DNA of 64,000 bases from Escherichia coli (GTDB taxonomy: Bacteria; Pseudomonadota; Gammaproteobacteria; Enterobacterales; Enterobacteriaceae), in assembly GCF_022846255.1 (NCBI RefSeq), contig NZ_AP025682.1. The stretch is one strand, 5' to 3'. Positions within the stretch are counted from its first letter, which is position 1. Each line of letters starts with the position of its first letter. Shown here one piece after another: positions 7,233-42,052 of the stretch. Under the pieces are notes generated by a model that was given only the letters and a program-made list of their open reading frames with translations, did no database searches and was not told where the DNA came from. The position numbers and the translations under genes are program-made.

Positions 7233-7874
7233 ATGAAACCATATCAGCGCCAGTTTATTGAATTTGCGCTTAGCAAGCAGGTGTTAAAGTTTGGCGAGTT
7301 TACGCTGAAGTCCGGGCGCAAAAGCCCCTATTTCTTCAACGCCGGGCTGTTTAATACCGGGCGCGATCTGGCACTGTTAGGCCGTTTTTACGCTGAAGCA
7401 TTGGTGGATTCCGGCATTGAGTTCGATCTGCTGTTTGGCCCTGCTTACAAAGGGATCCCGATTGCCACCACAACTGCCGTGGCGCTGGCGGAGCATCATG
7501 ACCTGGACCTGCCGTACTGCTTTAACCGCAAAGAAGCAAAAGACCATGGTGAAGGTGGCAATCTGGTCGGTAGCGCGTTACAAGGACGCGTAATGCTGGT
7601 GGATGATGTGATCACCGCCGGAACGGCGATCCGCGAGTCGATGGAAATTATTCAGGCCAATGGCGCGACGCTGGCTGGCGTATTGATTTCGCTTGATCGT
7701 CAGGAACGCGGGCGCGGCGAGATTTCGGCGATTCAGGAAGTTGAGCGTGATTACAACTGCAAGGTGATCTCTATCATCACCCTGAAAGACCTGATTGCTT
7801 ACCTGGAAGAGAAGCCAGAAATGGCGGAACATCTGGCGGCGGTTAAGGCCTATCGCGAAGAGTTTGGCGTTTAA
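7233..7874 (+). CDS. pyrE: Orotate phosphoribosyltransferase
   Basis: [41 protein letters not shown]..., 213 aa from ATG 7233. Confidence 0.95.
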
Positions 7875-7910
7875 AGAAACTCGCCGGATGAAAAGTCATC
7901 CGGCGTCATA

Positions 7911-8507
7911 TTACTGCAACTGTGCGGCAATTAGCGGCCAGCGGGCGTCAAAATCATCCGTCGGGCGGTATTTAAACTCGCTGCGGACAAAGCGTGACAG
8001 CATACCTTCACAGAAGGCCAGCAACTGGCTTGCCAGCAGGGTTTCATCGGTGGTGTAACCTTCACCCTCACGCATTCTCTTTTCACGCAATACCTGACGC
8101 AACTGCGCTTCAATACGCTCGAACAGCTGGTTGATGCGCCCTTGCAGACGATCCTGTTCGAACATTAGCGCATGACCAGTGAGGATGCGAGTCAGGCCAG
8201 GATTACGCTCACCAAAACCGAGAAGCAGCAACACAATCAGACGCAGGCGCGCTGTGGTGTCCTTCTCATCTTTCAGAATCAGATTGATGCGAGTAATCAG
8301 GCTATCTTCGATAAACTCAATCAGGCTATCGAACATGCGGGTCTTACTGGGGAAGTGGCGATACAGTGCCGCTTCGGAAACGCCGACAGAGGCGGCCAGT
8401 TTTGCCGTCGTGATACGTTGGCTTCCATCGCTGGATTCCAGCATCAGCGCCAGAGACTGAAGTATTTCCTCGCGACGGTTCCTTTTCGCAGTTTGTTTTT
8501 CTGCCAT
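7911..8507 (-). CDS. slmA: Nucleoid occlusion factor SlmA (TetR family)
   Basis: ORF contains [52 protein letters not shown]...; 198 aa. Confidence 0.9.
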
Positions 8508-8613
8508 GTTACAAAATACCCCTGAAAATAAGCACTTGCCAGGCGGCACCCACGCTATGACCGCAAACGAAATGTTTGCGGCTATGTTATGACGTTATTC
8601 GGATGCGTATGTG

Positions 8614-9072
8614 TTACTGACGACCAGAGTGACCAAAGCCGCCTTCACCGCGGTCGGTGGCGTCGAAATCTTCCACCAGATTAAATTCAGCCTGTACTAC
8701 CGGAACAAAAATCATCTGGGCGATGCGTTCGCCAGGTTGAATGGTGAAGCTGTCCTGACCACGGTTCCACACGGAAATCATCAACTGGCCCTGATAGTCA
8801 GAATCGATCAATCCTACCAGGTTACCAAGCACGATACCGTGCTTATGTCCCAATCCGGAGCGCGGCAGCATCATTGCCGCCAGTGAAGGATCGGCAATAT
8901 GAATCGCCAGCCCGGTCGGAACCAGCGTAGTGTCACCCGGAGCCAGTTCTACGGCGTCGTCGAGACAGGCACGCAGGTCAAGTCCGGCAGAGCCAGAGGT
9001 GGCATAAGTCGGGAGCGGAAATTCCTTCCCAACGCGCGGGTCCAGAATCTTAACGTCGATTTTTTTCATCAT
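8614..9072 (-). CDS. dut: dUTP diphosphatase
   Basis: [39 protein letters not shown]... recognised as Dut. Confidence 0.95.
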
Positions 9073-10270
9073 AACGGGTCACGATCTCGTCGAGTAATAA
9101 TTGGCCAAGGAGCTCTTTGCGCTCAAGCGGTAAGACTTTATCTCCGTCCTGCCAGAAAAGGTGTAATGCGTTGTTGTCGCTGTTAAATCCTTGAGTTGGC
9201 TGGGAAACATCGTTCGCGCAGATCAGATCAAGGTTTTTACGGATACGTTTTTGCCGGGCGTATTCTTCCACATTATTTGTTTCGGCGGCAAATCCAACGA
9301 CGTAGGGGCGATGGTCTTTTAGTGCGGCAACGCCTGCGACGATATCGGGGTTTTTAACCATTTTTATTGTTAATTCATCACCCTGCGTGGCCTGCTTTTT
9401 GATTTTTTCTGGGGCCACGGTAGCTGCGCGATAATCCGCCACGGCGGCGCAACCGATAAAAATATTTTGCTGCTGTACAGAAGCATTCACGGCGGCTTCC
9501 ATTTCCAGCGCGGTCATCACATCAACACGGTTAACAAACGGTGGCGTCGGTAGTGAAACCGGACCTGATACCAGCGTGACGTTCGCGCCACGACGGGCTG
9601 CGGCGGCGGCGATAGCAAAACCCATCTTGCCGGAGCTGTGATTAGAGATATAACGCACGGGATCGAGCGGTTCACGCGTCGGACCGGCGGTAATCATAAT
9701 GTTCAGATGTTTCAGGTCGTTGACGGGCGAAAAATGCGCTACCGCCATATCCACAATGGTTAACGGATCGAGCATTCGTCCTGGGCCGATATCACCACAA
9801 GCCTGACTGCCGCTGTCTGGCCCCCAGATGAGCAAACCACGTGAGGCAAGCACCTCTAAATTATGCTGCGTGGCAGCGGCACGGTACATCTGCTGGTTCA
9901 TGGCGGGGAGCACGGCTACAGGCGCAGGTGTAGCCAGACAAATCGTCGATACCAGGTCATTCGCCATTCCGGCAGCAACACGGGCAATTAAATCTGCCGT
10001 GGCAGGGGCGAGAATCACTAAATCAGCCCATTTACCCAGCTCAATATGGCCCATAGCGGCTTCGGCTGCCGGGTCCAGCAGACTGTCGGAAACGGGATAA
10101 CCAGAAACCGCCTGCAAGCTAAGTGGGGTGATAAAGGCTTTTGCCGCTTCGGTCATGGCTACGCGGACATCGGCCCCGCGATCGCGCAAACGACGCACCA
10201 GTTCAGGGGTTTTATAGGCAGCAATACCGCCGCTAACGCCGAGAACGATTTTTTTACCGGCCAGGCTCAT
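9050..10270 (-). CDS. coaBC: Phosphopantothenoylcysteine decarboxylase / phosphopantothenate-cysteine ligase (CoaBC, Dfp)
   Basis: ORF contains [37 protein letters not shown]...; 406 aa from ATG at 10268-10270; 3' end overlaps the dut start by 23 nt. Confidence 0.95.
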
Positions 10271-12696: not shown

Positions 12697-14461
<1,765 letters not shown>

Positions 14462-14775
14462 AGTAAATAGCTGACTTATGGATGTGCTGGGGATTCTATG
14501 TATTTAGCTGTGGCTTTACCATTACTTTTCCCGTTTTTGACTTAAATAGCAATTTACCCGCCAATTCTTGCTGAACATCTATACTTTTTTTGTATTTTTA
14601 TGCGATTCATTGATTTCTGCAGTACGTGCAGGAAGGAATCGCAGAGCAACAGTAAAAGAATATGGTTGCTAATGATTTTATTTGATTGATTTCTTTATTG
14701 AAAATCAACAATGTGCTTAAAAATCATTCGGGTCGGATTGCCGCGAAAGAAGTGATACACTAGCGCGTCAATATC

Positions 14776-14825
14776 AGTGCGGTATCAGTATTCAGGTAGC
14801 TGTTGAGCCTGGGGCGGTAGCGTGC
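14776..14825 (+). promoter_or_regulatory. JUMPstart region with ops element GGCGGTAGCGTG (14813-14824) in the waaQ operon leader
   Basis: Exact 12-nt ops sequence about 50-100 nt upstream of the waaQ start on the coding strand; RfaH-dependent antitermination is established for waaQ operons. Confidence 0.7.
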
Positions 14826-14873
14826 TTTTTCTGCTTCACCTTAATCGGATAATCTCAACAAAAAGAGTTACTT

Positions 14874-15932
14874 GTGGATAAGCCATTTCGAAGAATTTTG
14901 CTCATTAAGATGCGTTTTCATGGGGATATGTTATTAACTACTCCCGTCATTAGTTCGCTGAAAAAAAATTACCCTGACGCAAAAATCGATGTGCTGCTTT
15001 ATCAGGACACCATCCCGATCCTGTCTGAAAATCCAGAGATTAACGCGCTCTACGGCATAAAAAATAAAAAAGCAAAAGCTTCAGAAAAAATTGCCAACTT
15101 TTTTCATCTCATCAAGGTATTACGTGCCAATAAGTATGACCTTATCGTTAATCTTACCGATCAATGGATGGTTGCTATACTGGTTCGCTTATTAAATGCC
15201 CGTGTGAAAATTTCCCAGGATTATCATCATCGGCAGTCTGCTTTTTGGCGTAATAGTTTCACTCATTTGGTGCCGTTGCAGGGTGGAAATGTGGTGGAAA
15301 GTAACTTATCCGTGCTGACGCCATTGGGACTTGAATCGTTGGTGAAGCAGACAACCATGAGTTACCCGCCTGCAAGCTGGAAACGTATGCGTCGCGAACT
15401 TGATCACGCTGGTGTTGGACAAAATTATGTGGTTATCCAACCTACGGCGCGGCAAATCTTCAAATGCTGGGACAACGCCAAGTTTTCCGCTGTGATTGAT
15501 GCCTTACATGCTCGTGGTTATGAAGTCGTTCTGACGTCCGGCCCAGATAAAGACGATCTGGCCTGCGTCAATGAAATTGCGCAGGGATGCCAGACGCCAC
15601 CAGTAACGGCGCTGGCCGGAAAGGTGACCTTCCCGGAACTTGGTGCGTTAATCGATCATGCGCAGCTGTTTATTGGCGTTGATTCCGCACCGGCGCATAT
15701 TGCCGCTGCAGTTAATACGCCGCTGATATCGCTGTTTGGTGCGACAGACCATATTTTCTGGCGTCCCTGGTCAAATAACATGATTCAATTCTGGGCGGGA
15801 GATTACCGGGAAATGCCAACGCGCGATCAGCGTGACCGAAATGAGATGTATCTTTCGGTTATTCCGGCGGCAGATGTCATTGCTGCTGTCGATAAATTAC
15901 TGCCCTCCTTCACGACAGGTACGTCGTTATGA
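14874..15932 (+). CDS. waaQ: LPS heptosyltransferase III WaaQ
   Basis: ORF ...MRFHGDMLLTTPVISSLKKNYPDAKIDVLLYQD...; start ambiguous: GTG 14874, TTG 14898 or ATG 14910. Confidence 0.9.
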   Translation: MDKPFRRILLIKMRFHGDMLLTTPVISSLKKNYPDAKIDVLLYQDTIPILSENPEINALYGIKNKKAKASEKIANFFHLIKVLRANKYDLIVNLTDQWMVAILVRLLNARVKISQDYHHRQSAFWRNSFTHLVPLQGGNVVESNLSVLTPLGLESLVKQTTMSYPPASWKRMRRELDHAGVGQNYVVIQPTARQIFKCWDNAKFSAVIDALHARGYEVVLTSGPDKDDLACVNEIAQGCQTPPVTALAGKVTFPELGALIDHAQLFIGVDSAPAHIAAAVNTPLISLFGATDHIFWRPWSNNMIQFWAGDYREMPTRDQRDRNEMYLSVIPAADVIAAVDKLLPSFTTGTSL

Positions 15933-20614: not shown

Positions 20615-21643
20615 ATGGATTTATTAGCTGAGAGTATTACTGAAGTCGCTGTCTCTGGGGAAATTGCTAACACCGATCGTGTGTTAAATATCGCTTACGG
20701 TATTGACCGCAACTTTTTATTTGGTGCGGCAGTATCTATGCAATCAGTTGTTATGCATAACCCGGACCTTGCGGTTAAGTTTCATCTCTTTACTGACTAC
20801 ATTGATGAAGATTATCTACAACGTGTTAATGCTTTTACCAGCAAAAATGCTAACGTTGAAGTAAGAATTTATAAAGTATCCAGTGCCTTTATTGATATCT
20901 TCCCCAGCCTGAAACAGTGGTCTTATGCAACATTCTTCCGTTTAGTTGCGTTCCAGTATCTGAGTGAAACTATTGAAAATCTGTTATATATCGATGCTGA
21001 TGTCATCTGTAAAGGCTCATTAGCTGGATTGCTTGATATTAATTTTGATGGCGATAAGTTCGCAGCTGTTATTAAAGATGTGCCTTTTATGCAGGAAAAA
21101 CCAGCGAAGCGTCTGGCTATAGAGGGGCTTCCAGGGAATTATTTCAACGCCGGTGTAGTATATCTGCAGCTTGAAGCATGGGCGAAAAATGATTTTATGA
21201 ATAAAGCCATTGCTATGCTGGCAAGTGACCCGCAGCACACGAAATATAAATGCCTTGACCAGGATATTTTAAATATTCTGTTCTTTGGTCATTGTATTTT
21301 TATTAGCGGCGATTATGATTGCTTTTATGGCATTGACTATGAGTTAAAAAATAAAAGCGATGAAGATTATAAAAAGACCATTACCGATGATACTAAGCTG
21401 ATTCATTATGTTGGCGTAACGAAGCCCTGGAACGACTGGACGAATTATCCCTGCCAGAAGTATTTTAATGAGGCTTATCAGGCTTCTTGCTGGAATGATG
21501 TGGCGTTTATTCCAGCAACGAATGAAAAGCAGTATCAAGTGAAATCCAGACATTTGAAAAGAAATGGTAAAATTGCATCTTCATTTTACTATTTCATGCT
21601 CTATTATAGTAAGAAAATAGCGCGTAAGCATTTTTCCAAATAA
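20615..21643 (+). CDS. waaW: Outer-core family-8 glycosyltransferase, by position WaaW (alpha-1,2-galactosyltransferase)
   Basis: 342-aa GT8-like ORF (YGIDRNFLFGAAVSMQS..., YIDADVICKG, NAGVVYLQ); third GT8 gene, following waaY. Confidence 0.6.
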   Translation: MDLLAESITEVAVSGEIANTDRVLNIAYGIDRNFLFGAAVSMQSVVMHNPDLAVKFHLFTDYIDEDYLQRVNAFTSKNANVEVRIYKVSSAFIDIFPSLKQWSYATFFRLVAFQYLSETIENLLYIDADVICKGSLAGLLDINFDGDKFAAVIKDVPFMQEKPAKRLAIEGLPGNYFNAGVVYLQLEAWAKNDFMNKAIAMLASDPQHTKYKCLDQDILNILFFGHCIFISGDYDCFYGIDYELKNKSDEDYKKTITDDTKLIHYVGVTKPWNDWTNYPCQKYFNEAYQASCWNDVAFIPATNEKQYQVKSRHLKRNGKIASSFYYFMLYYSKKIARKHFSK

Positions 21644-21674
21644 TTATTAAGATTAATCATCCAGAGATTTTTTA

Positions 21675-22448
21675 ATGAACTTGCCCATTTATATTGTCTC
21701 ACTTAAAAGAGATATTGAGCGAAGAAATAAAATAAATGATGTTTTTCATCGATTAAATATTAATTTTGATTTTTTTGATGCCATAGATGCTAAAGACCCT
21801 CAAAATAAAGAAATTATTGATAAAATGAGATTAAGTGGTGTCGGCGCAGAAATGACTGATGGAGAAATTGCTTGTACATTAAGTCATCAGCTTATATATC
21901 AGGATATGATAGATAAAAATATAGAATGGGCAGTCATTCTCGAGGATGATGTTATCGTCAATGAGAGATTTAAAAAATTTCTGCAATATTTTAATCTTTC
22001 TGAAAAAGACAAGTTAAAACATAATAATTTGTATTTGCTTGGAGGACAGAAAGGATTACATGATTATCCGGTATTGGGGCAAAGCCTTTTTAGTAAAGTT
22101 AAGGTAAGTACTTGTACTTTTCGGCGTGTTAATTTCAATAAAAATAAAATTCGGCGTACATGTTCATATTTGATGAATAAAGATATGGCACAAAAGTTGC
22201 TCAAATTGACAATGGATTGTGGCACCTATCGAGCTGATAGCTGGAAGTTAATGCATCAACATAATATTATAAAAGATTTTTATTTAGACGAAATAATATT
22301 ACATCCTATTTTAAATGAGTTTAATAGTCACCTTGAAAGTGAAAGGCTTTTAATATCGGAAAAAAAACAACCCAGGACAAGGCTTCAGAAAAAAATGAAG
22401 TTTATACGTTCCTGGATAAAGGTGGCTTTTTTTTCTCTTTTGAAATGA
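21675..22448 (+). CDS. Family-25-like beta-glycosyltransferase (LgtB/Lic2A-like): WaaV (R1) or WaaX (R4)
   Basis: 257-aa ORF MNLPIYIVSLKRDIERRNKINDVF...FDFFDAIDAKD...ACTLSHQLIYQDMIDKN...AVILEDDVIV resembles LgtB-type transferases; I cannot tell WaaV from WaaX without a reference alignment. Confidence 0.7.
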   Translation: MNLPIYIVSLKRDIERRNKINDVFHRLNINFDFFDAIDAKDPQNKEIIDKMRLSGVGAEMTDGEIACTLSHQLIYQDMIDKNIEWAVILEDDVIVNERFKKFLQYFNLSEKDKLKHNNLYLLGGQKGLHDYPVLGQSLFSKVKVSTCTFRRVNFNKNKIRRTCSYLMNKDMAQKLLKLTMDCGTYRADSWKLMHQHNIIKDFYLDEIILHPILNEFNSHLESERLLISEKKQPRTRLQKKMKFIRSWIKVAFFSLLK

Positions 22449-22482
22449 GATTGTTAATTTAAATTTATTGTGAGATATTAAC

Positions 22483-23736
22483 GTGGAAGTAAAAATTGAG
22501 CAATTTCGAAATAACAGCTGTAATTTTATTTTTTTATTATATTTAATCGGTTTATTGTTTGTGCCAATTGATCTAAATATTACCACTAAAATAATTAATG
22601 CTACAGGTGCATTTTCTCTTTTTTTATTAATTGTAAATAACAAGCATAATTATAATAAAAATATCATTATATTAATTCTTGGCTTACTTCTTTTGGGTGC
22701 AATGAACCTGATATGGTATGAGTTTTATAAAACAGAAGATGTAGTATATAGAAATGCTTATCGAGGCTATCTTGAGTCTGGAAAACTATTAGTATTTAGC
22801 TCGTTGACATTTTTATTACTAAGTAAAAATAAATTCAGGCAAAATGAAAAGCTACATTTTATTTCAGCTATCTTAGTTCAAATAATCATGCTATGTAGAG
22901 CATATTATCAAGGGATATATTTGCATGCAGACCGCATTCCCCTCTCCGCCATGAATGGGAATATTGGTCAGATGGGGGCAGCGACTATTGCGGCTTATGT
23001 GATTACATTCACTACTTTATATTCTTCAATTGTATTCATCAAAATGCAATCGAAATATAAATGGTTTCTATTTTATGCTAACTTTGCTTTAAGCTTTGCA
23101 GCAGTAATGATGACAGGAACACGTGCGGCAATTTTCACATTCCCACTTATGATTATGGTCATATTATTTCTTCAGCATCGTGATCAAAAAGTGTTTTTAT
23201 TTAAAGGATTGAGTGGTGTTTTTATATTGCTACTTGCTTGTGGTTTGATATTTAATAAGGAAATTGAGAGGCGAATTAATTCATTAAAAGCTGATGTTAT
23301 TTCATATGCTACAAAAAATAACAGTCAATCCTCGGTCGGAGCACGTTTTGCAATGGTTAATGCAGGAATTAAAGGAAGTCCTGATGGTTTTAATTGGCAA
23401 TCTCTTGAGCAGCGTGCTGAAAAGATAAAAGCATTAAGTGCAGAAAATAATATTTATAGTGGAGCTTTATTATTCCTTGATGTACATATGCATAATGAAA
23501 TTGTTGAATCTCTTTCCACGAAAGGAAAAATTGGTCTTCTTGTTCTTATTATGTTCTATGTTGCAATGATCTATTACTGTATCCGGGAGAAAAAATATAT
23601 ACTCTTGGTTTTCCCTGCTTCTATTATGTTATTTGGCATTAGTGATGTCATTACACATGCTAAACCAATACCGGCATCGTGGATTGTGTGCCTCTTCCTG
23701 TCTATATCGTTTTTGAGTAAAAAAGAACCACAATAA
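22483..23736 (+). CDS. waaL: O-antigen ligase WaaL (polytopic membrane protein)
   Basis: 417-aa, highly hydrophobic, AT-rich ORF at the end of the central waa operon; the track start is a GTG at 22483 and the true start is uncertain; called from position and topology rather than sequence identity. Confidence 0.7.
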   Translation: MEVKIEQFRNNSCNFIFLLYLIGLLFVPIDLNITTKIINATGAFSLFLLIVNNKHNYNKNIIILILGLLLLGAMNLIWYEFYKTEDVVYRNAYRGYLESGKLLVFSSLTFLLLSKNKFRQNEKLHFISAILVQIIMLCRAYYQGIYLHADRIPLSAMNGNIGQMGAATIAAYVITFTTLYSSIVFIKMQSKYKWFLFYANFALSFAAVMMTGTRAAIFTFPLMIMVILFLQHRDQKVFLFKGLSGVFILLLACGLIFNKEIERRINSLKADVISYATKNNSQSSVGARFAMVNAGIKGSPDGFNWQSLEQRAEKIKALSAENNIYSGALLFLDVHMHNEIVESLSTKGKIGLLVLIMFYVAMIYYCIREKKYILLVFPASIMLFGISDVITHAKPIPASWIVCLFLSISFLSKKEPQ

Positions 23737-23751
23737 TAAAAGCGTTGACTA

Positions 23752-23778
23752 AGTAAGTGGGTATAATGCCCACTTACT
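23752..23778. terminator. Hairpin AGTAAGTGGG-N7-CCCACTTACT between convergent waaL and waaC
   Basis: Perfect 10-bp inverted repeat in the 47-bp gap between the two stops; possible bidirectional terminator, inferred. Confidence 0.4.
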
Positions 23779-23783
23779 ATTTA

Positions 23784-24743
23784 TTAAATCAATGTGATTT
23801 TTTTATAAACAGCCGCTGCTTCTAAATTATTTAAATTCATTAGCGGAGCCCTACAAACCATCTGATTCTTCCCATACCCACCAATTAATCCCGGATCGGT
23901 AGGTCCATAAACCGTGATATTGGGTCTATCCAGTGCCGCCGTTAAATGGCTTAACCCCGTATCCACCGACACTACAAATTTAGCCCCGGCCAGTACGCGG
24001 GCAACGCCTTCCAGACTCATCTTCGGCAATACTTCAACATAAGCAAATCCTTCCGCCAGTCGTTTCGCCCGTTCTTCCTCATGCGGCGCGCCCCACGGAA
24101 GTTTAATCCGTATTCCTGAATCAGCCAGTAAACCAATCAATTCTCGCCAGTGTTCTTCCGGCCAGTGTTTATCATCTCGGGTTGTTGCATGAAGAAATAC
24201 GGCATATTCGCCAGCATCTGTAGGCAGGTTCGTCAGGAAATGCTGTGCGATAGCATAATCGCCCTGGGTTTGTGGTTTGCTATAGCCCAGACTTTTGGCA
24301 AACAGTTCGCGGGTGCGTTCTACGGCGTGCTGCTGTTTTGCAATATGATGTTTACGATTGTAAAACAGGCTGGCTAACGGTTCGCGAGCGGTTTGCCAGT
24401 CCATTCCATGCTTTACGCCATGCGCCAGACGCGTCACCAGCGCCGCGCTTTTTACCAGCCCCTGGGCGTCGATAACTGCGTCATAGTTCTTTGCTTGTAG
24501 CGCTTCACGAAACGCTTTGCGTTCAGCTTTTATGGGAGCCGAGAACCAGGCTTTACGCCAGCGACGTATTGCCACAGGAATAACTCGCTCAACGGCAGCG
24601 TGCCAGGAAGGAATCTGTGCGAACCCTTCTTCCACCACCCAGTCAAACTTAATCCCTGGGATTGCCTGCTGGGCATCAGTGAGTGCGGGCAGCGTGTGGA
24701 GAACATCGCCCATCGACGATGTTTTAACGATCAGAACCCGCAT
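23784..24743 (-). CDS. waaC: LPS heptosyltransferase I WaaC
   Basis: 319-aa ORF MRVLIVKTSSMGDVLHTLPALTDAQQAIPGIKFDWVVEEGFAQIPSWH... Confidence 0.9.
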   Translation of the reverse strand: MRVLIVKTSSMGDVLHTLPALTDAQQAIPGIKFDWVVEEGFAQIPSWHAAVERVIPVAIRRWRKAWFSAPIKAERKAFREALQAKNYDAVIDAQGLVKSAALVTRLAHGVKHGMDWQTAREPLASLFYNRKHHIAKQQHAVERTRELFAKSLGYSKPQTQGDYAIAQHFLTNLPTDAGEYAVFLHATTRDDKHWPEEHWRELIGLLADSGIRIKLPWGAPHEEERAKRLAEGFAYVEVLPKMSLEGVARVLAGAKFVVSVDTGLSHLTAALDRPNITVYGPTDPGLIGGYGKNQMVCRAPLMNLNNLEAAAVYKKITLI

Positions 24744-39550: not shown

Positions 39551-40323
39551 GCGTTTTTCTCCCTCGAATGCTCATTATGGTCACCAGGCAGGCGGGTAAT
39601 GCGTGCATGGCGAGCCTGATCTTCATCGAATCGTTTCATGGTGGTGTGAACAAAGCTAAGGTGCGCCATCATTGCTTTACGCGCCCCGTCAGCATCACCG
39701 GCAAAAATGGCGTCAATGACTGCCTGATGTTGTTCGGTCAGCTGTGAAAAAACCGGGGGTACCAGATACATCCGCTGGCGGCTATGCTTCACGGAGGATT
39801 GCAGGACATCGAAGAAACCGCGCATGGTTTGCAGCAGCACGATGTTATGTGAGGCTTCGGCAATCGCCAGATGAAAACGAACGTCCGCTTGTGAGGCGAG
39901 ATCCGGGTCTTCACTTAGCGTTGCTTCAAAGCAAAGCTGAATCTTTTCTTTTTCGCCAGGTGTGGCGCGCATTGCCGCATGCCACGCGGTGCTGGCTTCA
40001 ATGGCGTAGCGGGCTTCCAGAATATCGAAACTGTAATCCGGATCATCGGCCATCAGCGTTTTCAGCGGCTGGACGATGTTTTGCTCCGACCATGTGTCAT
40101 GACGCCAGCGAATAAACGTCCCGCCGCCACGTCGACTGAGCAGCACACCTTCGCTTACCAGTTTCGCCAGCGCCTCGCGCAGTGAATTTCTCGACACGCC
40201 GAGTTGCATCGCCAGTTGACGTTCAGCGGGCAACTTCATGCCCGCTTCCAGGTTTTTTTCATCAATCAGCGCCCGCACACGATCGGCAACCTCGTCTGAC
40301 AGGCGTCTGGGTAAAACAATCAT
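39547..40323 (-). CDS. lldR: GntR-family regulator LldR
   Basis: ORF contains [52 protein letters not shown]...; 258 aa; overlaps the lldD start and lldP stop. Confidence 0.9.
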
Positions 40324-41978
40324 TAAGGAATCATCCACGTTAAGACATAGGCCTGAAGCGTGGTGATCACGCCCACCATACAGGTGAAGATCAGGCTGTG
40401 TTTGACAGTAAAGCGGAACAAATCAGACTCTTTGCCCACCAGGCCTACCGCCGCACAGGCGATAGCGATAGATTGCGGAGAGATCATTTTGCCGGTGACA
40501 CCACCGGTGGTGTTGGCAGCAACCAGCAACAGGTCAGAAACGCCAATTTGTTGTGCGGCGGTAGCCTGCAAAGCGGCAAACAAAGCATTAGATGACGTAT
40601 CCGACCCGGTCAGGAATACCCCAAGCCAGCCGAGGAACGGCGAGAAGAAGGTGAATGCATGACCGGTGTGCGCCAGTGCCAGCGCCAGTGTTGATGACAA
40701 ACCGGAATAGTTCGAGATAAAGGCGAACGCCAGCACCATACCGATGGAGTAGATAGGCAGAGCCAGTTCTTTCAGCGTGCTGCCGAAGGTGCTGATAGCG
40801 TCAGATGGTTTCATCTTCAGCCAGACAATCGAGAGCAGGGCAGCAAAAAGAATGGCGGTACCGGTGGCAGAGAACCAGTCAAACTTAAACACGGCGGCAT
40901 ACGCTGTCGCTTCGCTGACCACTGGCGGCATACGGGCAACCAGTTTATCGAGGTACGGCACCGGAATGTTGATCACCCACTCATACAGCGCACCGCCTGA
41001 AGCGAACAGGGCTTTAAACGGCGGGATACTCCACAGCGTTACGGTGGCGGTCAGGAACAGAAACGGTGTCCAGGCGCGCAGCACCTGACCTGCCGTGTAA
41101 CCTGTGTGAGCCAGCGTCATATCAACCTGTGACGCCCCCAAGTCACCGAAGCGGAATACGCGCACTGGTTGCCAGCGTTTGAGGAACAGCGTCAGGCAGA
41201 GCAGTGATACCAGCGAAGAGATAATGTCTGGCAGTTCCGGCCCAATGAAGTTAGAGCTGAGGTATTGAGCAATGGCAAACGAACCACCTGCAACCACGAC
41301 CGCAGGCCACGTCTCTTTGATACCGCGCCAACCGTCCATAATCGCCATGATCCAGAACAGCACGATAATGGTCATAAACGGCAGCTGACGCCCCACCATC
41401 TGACCAATCTCAAAGCTGTCGATGCCTGTTACCTGCCCGGCGACCAGAATCGGAATACCCATCGCGCCAAATGCCACTGGTGCGGTGTTAACAATCAGGC
41501 ACAGTCCGGCGGCGTAGAGTGGTTTAAAGCCCAGACCGACCAGCAATGCGGCGGTAATTGCTACCGGTGCGCCAAAGCCTGCGGCTCCTTCAAGGAAAGC
41601 GCCGAAACAGAAACCGACGATCAGCATTTGCAGGCGCTGGTCAGGGGTTATCGAAAGAATAGACGAGCGAATGATGTCAAACTGCCCGGTTTTCACCGAG
41701 ATCTTATAGACGAACACCGCTGCAATAATGATCCACGCGATGGGCCACAACCCGTAGAAGAAGCCATAAACCACCGAGGCCAGCGCGTTAGCGACCGGCA
41801 TTTTATAGAACAGCAAAGCCACGGCAAGGGCGATTGCCACCGTCCATGAGGCGGCGACGTATCCTTTCAGTTTGAGCTTAATCAGCGCAAAGAAGAAAAA
41901 CAGGATGGGAAGCGATGCTATCAGGCTGGAAAGCCAGATATTCCCGGCGGGATCGTAGTTTTGTTGCCAGAGATTCAT
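40323..41978 (-). CDS. lldP: L-lactate permease
   Basis: ORF contains [44 protein letters not shown]...; 551 aa, polytopic. Confidence 0.95.
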
Positions 41979-42052
41979 TGCAGGTCTCCTGCAGTCCACA
42001 CACGCCGTGTAATGAGTCTGTTGCTCATCTCCTTGTCACACGTTGTGTAAAA

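Follow-up and report, generated by a model that had tools for sequence, protein, structure and literature searches.

The divergent waaA-waaQ spacer of Escherichia coli as promoter and JUMPstart/ops leader of the RfaH-dependent LPS-core operon

Introduction

In Escherichia coli, a long divergent spacer separates waaA from waaQ, which raises the question of which parts of the spacer serve the waaQ operon, where transcription of this operon starts, and how much of the spacer is transcribed as its leader. RfaH control of the waaQ operon sets the completeness of the LPS core and, with it, outer-membrane integrity, resistance to serum and antimicrobial peptides, and virulence. We analyzed the spacer within a 64-kb stretch of E. 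coli DNA, referred to here as the window, to which all coordinates refer unless another genome is named. We conclude, with a probability of about 0.93, that the waaQ (rfaQ) LPS-core operon has its promoter and leader in this region, a classical RfaH target with a JUMPstart/ops element, and nothing was found against the core reading of the region as an RfaH-dependent waaQ promoter and leader. The leader element is a genuine, working one that has been described before, and the small RNA derived from it is already annotated in K-12. Confirming the element adds no new biology; it fixes the anatomy of this allele (promoter, start, JUMPstart, ops, RirA counterpart, and start codon) and corrects the idea of a 400-nt waaQ leader.

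Results

Gene calls and composition of the spacer

The spacer is bounded by the following features.

13184-14461, minus strand: waaA (kdtA), Kdo transferase, the divergent neighbor (full-length match to the NF004385 equivalog, 906 bits; RefSeq annotation of the matching strain)
14874-15932, plus strand: waaQ (rfaQ), heptosyltransferase III (NF007742, 711 bits; PF01075; annotation)
14863-14876, plus strand: weak Shine-Dalgarno-like AAGAG, 6-nt spacer, and the waaQ GTG (AAGAG and GTG invariant in 41/41 aligned sequences)

The waaQ open reading frame (ORF) encodes 352 amino acids from the GTG at 14874, and the alignment to the RfaQ profile begins at residue 1 of the called GTG ORF and covers positions 1 to 351 of 352 in NF007742. 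The divergent spacer spans 14462-14873 and is 412 bp by these gene calls; the initial annotation had rightly seen a long divergent waaA-waaQ region, although its size of 410 bp was slightly short. Its description of the region as AT-rich, with several A/T tracts, agrees with the composition: the G+C content is 38.1% in the spacer and 31.8% in its center (14551-14720) versus 50.1% in the whole window, and nine A/T-only runs of at least 6 nt lie within the spacer.

waaQ is the first gene of the RfaH-dependent core operon. The downstream order is waaQ-G-P-O, a GT8 gene, waaY, a galactosyltransferase gene, a GT25 gene, and a ligase gene, and the cluster is of the R1/R4 core type. A GT25-family glycosyltransferase gene (21675-22448, plus strand) occupies the place where CFT073 has a GT2-family gene, and collinearity with CFT073 is lost across the distal outer-core genes (21565-23843). 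We take the GT25 and GT2 genes to represent the difference between WaaX (R4) and WaaV (R1), which would assign the window to an R4-type core. At the other end, the first ∼8 kb of the window is not collinear with the best-matching strain, FDAARGOS_497, in which a reverse-transcriptase family gene lies between pyrE and slmA; this gene is absent from the window (7874-7911, versus 8445-9404 in locus L001). The window therefore equals neither the best-matching strain nor CFT073 throughout, since it differs from the former in the first ∼8 kb and from the latter in the distal waa genes.

A complete JUMPstart element ending in an exact ops

The following elements were located upstream of waaQ.

14786-14824, plus strand: JUMPstart element (RF01707; 55.2 bits against a gathering score of 35, E = 1.7e-11)
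14793-14797 / 14807-14811, plus strand: 5-bp JUMPstart stem (pairs kept in 41 sequences but for one unpaired cell)
14813-14824, plus strand (non-template strand): ops element GGCGGTAGCGTG, RfaH loading and pause site (exact 12-mer match; RfaH-bound in CFT073)
14826-14830, plus strand: T-run directly 3′ of ops, specific to waaQ leaders (comparison of waaQ leaders with the K-12 rfb leader)

The match to RF01707 covers model positions 1 to 38 of 38, and ops forms its 3′ end; no other Rfam family reaches its gathering score in the 64-kb window. Sub-threshold Rfam hits in the AT-rich center, to families of snoRNA and miRNA, were put down to chance. Across 41 sequences, the pairs of the JUMPstart stem change from A-U to G-U or G-C, the pair 14794-14810 occurring in all three forms. 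The conserved stem-loop was noted by Weinberg et al., who assigned no role to it (PMC2864571). The 12-nt ops consensus GGCGGTAGnnTG is satisfied by the exact 12-mer, which begins 45 nt downstream of the K-12-mapped start at 14768 (a start transferred by homology) and 61 nt upstream of the GTG; 49 nt lie between its end and the GTG, where the initial annotation had estimated ∼50 nt for an exact ops at this position. A T-rich tail directly after ops (5 or more T within 8 nt) occurs in the waaQ leaders of 36/39 species and is absent from the K-12 rfb JUMPstart/ops leader.

A 12-mer could match by accident, and ops-like strings without a role do occur. Besides the waaQ ops, the window holds five GGCGGTAG 8-mers and one 11/12 match, all intragenic, and 34 ops-like sites in the coding regions of CFT073 lack RfaH binding (PMC9765446). 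The 11/12 match, GGCGGTAGCCTG at 40557-40568 (plus strand), fits the consensus and lies within the minus-strand ORF 40323-42035, which is lldP, encoding L-lactate permease (NF007740); it was rejected as a functional site because it is inside lldP, on the template strand, and unbound by RfaH in CFT073. The remaining four 8-mers (4459, 9739, 40445, and 50651) also lie inside long ORFs, and none of these strings is a candidate RfaH loading site. The exact sequence of the waaQ ops is found once in the window, on the waaQ sense strand, against ∼0.008 copies expected by chance, and it is embedded in a full JUMPstart match with an E value of about 1e-11. It is part of a leader, sits on the non-template strand, and is conserved in at least 12 genera. 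The same site is bound by RfaH in CFT073, so that a chance occurrence without a role is already refuted by ChIP-seq and conservation, and we give it practically no weight.

Conservation of the spacer across genera and between two E. coli alleles

GTDB species representatives were scanned with WaaQ, yielding 72 loci, 43 of which have waaA divergent upstream. The spacer measures 384 to 412 bp in 40 of these 43 species. We aligned 41 enterobacterial waaA-waaQ spacers from at least 12 genera and calculated, for each block, the identity between the window and the genera other than Escherichia.

14462-14540: waaA-proximal block, identity 0.84
14541-14584 and 14614-14715: diverged center, identity 0.34 to 0.39
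14585-14613: island in the center, identity 0.71
14753-14761: extended −10 block, identity 0.91
14786-14824: JUMPstart and ops block, identity 0.87
14862-14876: block from the Shine-Dalgarno-like AAGAG to the GTG, identity 0.81

Three strings, TGnTACAnT, AAGAG, and GTG, show no variation among the 41 sequences; ops is retained in 39/41, with the exact 12-mer in 35. The presence of a JUMPstart/ops element, as first annotated, is thus borne out both by an Rfam match well above threshold and by this retention. The comparative data, drawn from at least 12 genera, show where in the spacer selection acts.

Departures from the common arrangement were seen in a few lineages. Two Siccibacter species (loci L018 and L035) keep the promoter as TGnTACAAT and lack JUMPstart/ops altogether, Kluyvera cryocrescens and K. 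intermedia (L071 and L008) have degenerate ops strings (GCAGTAGCGTAT and GAGCGGTAGCGTAC), and Leminorella (L029) carries two ops copies, 32 nt apart, upstream of waaQ.

Within E. coli, the spacer is at least 99% identical to that of the window in 4,433 of 5,425 complete records and 60 to 80% identical in 935 others, which include K-12 (79.9%). Relative to K-12, the window is identical up to about 14550, diverged in the center, and near-identical from about 14718 through ops. The species thus has two deep alleles (loci L002, L017, and L067), with WaaA proteins 99 to 100% identical, WaaQ proteins ∼73% identical, and the boundary of divergence at about 14550, inside the spacer. Since the stretch from the promoter to ops has been conserved between two old alleles, the comparison argues for purifying selection on this stretch. 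The CFT073 spacer is also 412 bp and differs from the window by two substitutions, at 14533 and 14731. In the comparison with published waaQ leaders that had been proposed as a check, CFT073 shows 2 SNPs over 412 bp, and ops and the JUMPstart stem-loop are identical in K-12.

The waaQ promoter and the length of the leader

14753-14761, plus strand: waaQ promoter, extended −10 TGaTACACT (TGnTACAnT in 41/41 aligned sequences)
14768-14873, plus strand: waaQ 5′ leader, 106 nt from the K-12-mapped start to the GTG (the rirA 5′ end, 3808238 in MG1655, maps to 14768)

Statements on the promoter and start site are based here on RefSeq annotation, reviews, and conservation; literature searches for papers on the waaQ start site, and for rirA together with Term-seq, returned none. 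The extended −10 ends 7 nt before 14768, the counterpart of the annotated 5′ end of K-12 rirA/waaQ, and by homology to that annotation we infer that waaQ transcription starts at about 14768. In CFT073, an RNA-seq-based prediction places the start of the transcription unit at 4239213 (PMC9765446), which corresponds to 14786 and a leader of 88 nt and is 18 nt downstream of the K-12-derived start. A sigma-70 ChIP peak coincides with the predicted waaQ transcription start in that strain (PMC9765446).

A consensus scan of the spacer for promoters and terminators gave two weak promoter sites, no more than in shuffled sequence, and no intrinsic terminator. The scan missed both conserved promoters, that of waaQ and the waaA candidate described below, because their −35 hexamers are poor. 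One of the weak sigma-70-like sites, at 14698-14727, could give a second, upstream waaQ start. At the −35 position of the conserved promoter, TCGGAT (14734-14739) stands 17 bp before TACACT; this hexamer is near-invariant across genera and matches TTGACA at 2/6 positions. Its conservation suggests a constraint other than −35 recognition by sigma-70, for example, an activator site.

Given a spacer length that is nearly constant in 40/43 species and a sigma-70-like site upstream of the conserved promoter, the whole ∼400-bp spacer might be read as one long waaQ 5′ leader transcribed from a promoter near waaA. Several observations oppose this reading and make it very improbable: the K-12 rirA/waaQ 5′ end maps to 14768, the CFT073 transcription unit is predicted to start at 14786, where sigma-70 also shows a ChIP peak, and an invariant extended −10 lies at the right distance from the start, whereas the spacer center is just 34 to 39% conserved and the conserved waaA-proximal block reads as a promoter on the opposite strand. 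The "long leader" of the initial annotation is accordingly reduced from ∼400 nt to 106 nt by the K-12 start or 88 nt by the CFT073 prediction. With the promoter placed at 14753-14761, ∼300 of the 412 bp of the spacer lie upstream of the waaQ start and consist of the putative waaA promoter block, the diverged AT-rich center, and the region upstream of the waaQ promoter.

RirA and the 3′ ends of the leader RNA

14768-14839, plus strand: counterpart of the K-12 small RNA RirA, 72 nt here versus 73 nt in K-12 owing to one T fewer in the T-run (homology to MG1655 b4760)

The initial annotation mentioned that a regulatory RNA derived from the 5′ UTR had been reported in E. coli. This RNA is RirA: MG1655 RefSeq lists the ncRNA rirA (b4760) at 3808166-3808238 on the waaQ strand, and b4760 maps to 14768-14839 with 67/73 aligned columns identical, the differences being five substitutions and one 1-nt deletion, all outside JUMPstart/ops. 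The ends of RirA were taken from the RefSeq annotation and from reviews. Reviews of Klein et al. 2016 describe RirA as a 73-nt RNA that shares its transcription start with the waaQ mRNA and whose overexpression mimics an rfaH deletion (PMC6358824, PMC5736990, PMC8745692); it includes both JUMPstart and ops (PMC5736990).

Term-seq of MG1655 by Adams et al. 2021 reports two 3′ ends on the minus strand of that genome, at 3808184 (86 nt upstream of the waaQ ATG, 62,669 reads) and 3808183 (85 nt upstream, 116,952 reads), the former scoring 1.04 for Rho, which classes it as not Rho-dependent, and 6.28 as an intrinsic terminator against a threshold of 3 (PMC7815308). These positions are G10 and U11 of ops, or 14822 and 14823 in the window, where 3′ ends are expected for the ops pause, and RNAs reaching them from the rirA 5′ end would be 55 to 56 nt long. 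The data suggest that the short leader RNA, in its abundant form, is 55 to 56 nt long and stops at the ops pause, short of the 73-nt end given in the annotation.

In its minimum-free-energy fold, the leader forms an extended hairpin (14776-14826), in which an upstream GUGCG box pairs with the RNA copy of ops, followed by U5. A leader that folds in this way might act as an attenuator, with the hairpin and the U-run at 14826-14830 serving as an intrinsic terminator that produces RirA and RfaH mainly promoting readthrough. The position of the long hairpin directly before U5 suits such a role, as do its pairing (94% in the 41 sequences, with one-sided strengthening of U-G to C-G in 8 and of G-U to A-U in 5), the T-run that 36/39 waaQ leaders have and the K-12 rfb JUMPstart/ops leader lacks, and the above-threshold intrinsic-terminator score of 6.28 at the 3′ end of the leader (Adams et al., PMC7815308). 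However, the K-12 3′ ends fall at ops G10/U11, inside the stem and 3 to 4 nt before the U-run, rather than 7 to 9 nt past the stem, and the annotated 73-nt end of RirA is likewise not where a terminator would release the RNA. No terminator was found by the scan, and the leader fold is no more stable than that of shuffled sequence (z = −0.46 and +1.02). Two-sided covariation is almost absent from the hairpin, because ops is invariant, and the fold itself came from a member of the same alignment. On this balance, attenuation as the main function of the leader is quite unlikely, and the reading of the region as an RfaH-loading promoter and leader is preferred.

The ops pause position, U11 at 14823, follows the 3′ base of the JUMPstart stem (14811) by 12 nt, which is the usual spacing between a pause hairpin and its pause. 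We found no evidence for an action of the JUMPstart hairpin on the ops pause. A combined proposal, speculative and on the whole rather unlikely, is that RirA in vivo is the 55- to 56-nt transcript ending at 14822/14823, that the JUMPstart hairpin could stabilize the pause and so keep the polymerase in place for RfaH, and that the waaQ-specific GUGCG box and the U-run could add an attenuator setting the ratio of short RNA to mRNA. If this were true, the same 60 nt would be the loading site, a pause or attenuator, and the source of an RNA that titrates RfaH.

RfaH recruitment and a proposed course of events

Recruitment of RfaH, expected in the initial annotation from the presence of ops, has been shown by ChIP-seq in CFT073, whose spacer is two substitutions from that of the window. 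A 19-fold RfaH peak extends there from 4229289 to 4239472, over rfaQ-c4448 (PMC9765446 Data set S2); it begins at about 14527 in window coordinates and spans the whole operon from the rfaQ leader. The waaQ ops was scored as RfaH-bound on the non-template strand of the UTR (PMC9765446 Data set S2). Upon deletion of rfaH, RNA polymerase occupancy drops toward the end of the operon, which is coated by H-NS/StpA (PMC9765446).

The behavior of ops and RfaH has been characterized in detail (PMC6391919). The ops pause is backtrack-stabilized (class II) and needs no hairpin. The non-template DNA of ops forms a small hairpin with C3:G8 and G4:A7 pairs and a flipped-out T6, which is read by the N-terminal domain of RfaH, relieving autoinhibition. 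The C-terminal domain then refolds and recruits S10 and the ribosome, and NusG and Rho are excluded (PMC6391919). For this element, the mechanism is established in published work, and RfaH occupancy has been demonstrated in a strain whose spacer is two SNPs away.

Applied to the window, transcription would start at about 14768 from the sigma-70 extended −10 promoter (14753-14761), and RNA polymerase would arrive at ops after ∼55 nt and pause at U11. The exposed non-template DNA would fold into the small hairpin, and RfaH would bind, open, and refold, remaining on the polymerase throughout the operon. Bound RfaH would suppress pausing and termination assisted by Rho and H-NS/StpA in this long, AT-rich, and poorly translated operon, and would aid ribosome recruitment to the weak AAGAG-N6-GTG start. 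The leader RNA, as the short species RirA, can bind and dampen RfaH when in excess, an effect shown in K-12. The gene rfaH itself lies outside the 64-kb window and, to our knowledge, is to be expected in all sequenced E. coli strains with this allele.

The waaA side and the AT-rich center

14493-14521, minus strand: candidate waaA sigma-70 promoter (−35 TGGTAA at 14521-14516, 17-bp spacer, −10 TAGAAT at 14498-14493)
14585-14613, no strand assigned: conserved island TTTTTTTGTATTTTTATGCGATTCATTGA in the diverged AT-rich center (71% identity to genera other than Escherichia versus 34 to 39% in its flanks)

The conserved strings ATTCTA and TTACCA in the waaA-proximal block read on the minus strand as TGGTAA-17 bp-TAGAAT, a plausible waaA promoter with a predicted start near 14486. 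In the 41 sequences from at least 12 genera, 5/6 bases of the −10 and 3/6 bases of the −35 are invariant, and most others are conserved in at least 90%; with 8/12 matches to the consensus, the candidate scores too low to be called in the consensus scan. MarA has been shown to bind the regulatory region of kdtA in vitro, with no effect on regulation (PMC12052159). Inspection of the conserved waaA-proximal block by eye yielded no convincing marbox.

The island in the center might bind a protein or serve as a second waaA promoter. A small protein starting at the ATG of the island was also considered and was rejected, as the ORF is not conserved (29 amino acids here, 8 to 52 in relatives).

Comparison with known systems

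The closest known systems are the rfaQ leaders of K-12 and CFT073. Both have waaA divergent from waaQ, as in the window, and share with it an identical ops 12-mer and JUMPstart stem-loop and the same extended −10; in CFT073, the distance from ops to the start codon is likewise 61 nt. K-12 differs in its diverged central ∼170 bp (79.9% identity overall), in a T-run that is one T longer than in the window, and in a WaaQ protein that is ∼73% identical. The window segment 14768-14839 resembles RirA in holding JUMPstart and ops behind the same promoter and is a homolog by sequence; RirA expression and RfaH binding are known from K-12.

The K-12 rfb (O-antigen) leader in the galF-rfbB spacer shares with the waaQ leader the 39-nt JUMPstart, the CAGTGC box, the 5-bp stem-loop, and GGCGGTAGCGTG. 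The two leaders differ in arrangement: in rfb, the stem comes directly after the CAGTGC box, with CATTAATACC behind ops, whereas the waaQ leader has its CAGTGCG box 11 nt further upstream and the conserved T-run behind ops. Finally, the distance from the JUMPstart stem to U11 is the same 12-nt stem-to-pause spacing as in his-type hairpin-stabilized pauses, from which ops differs as a class II backtrack pause that does not require a hairpin (PMC6391919).
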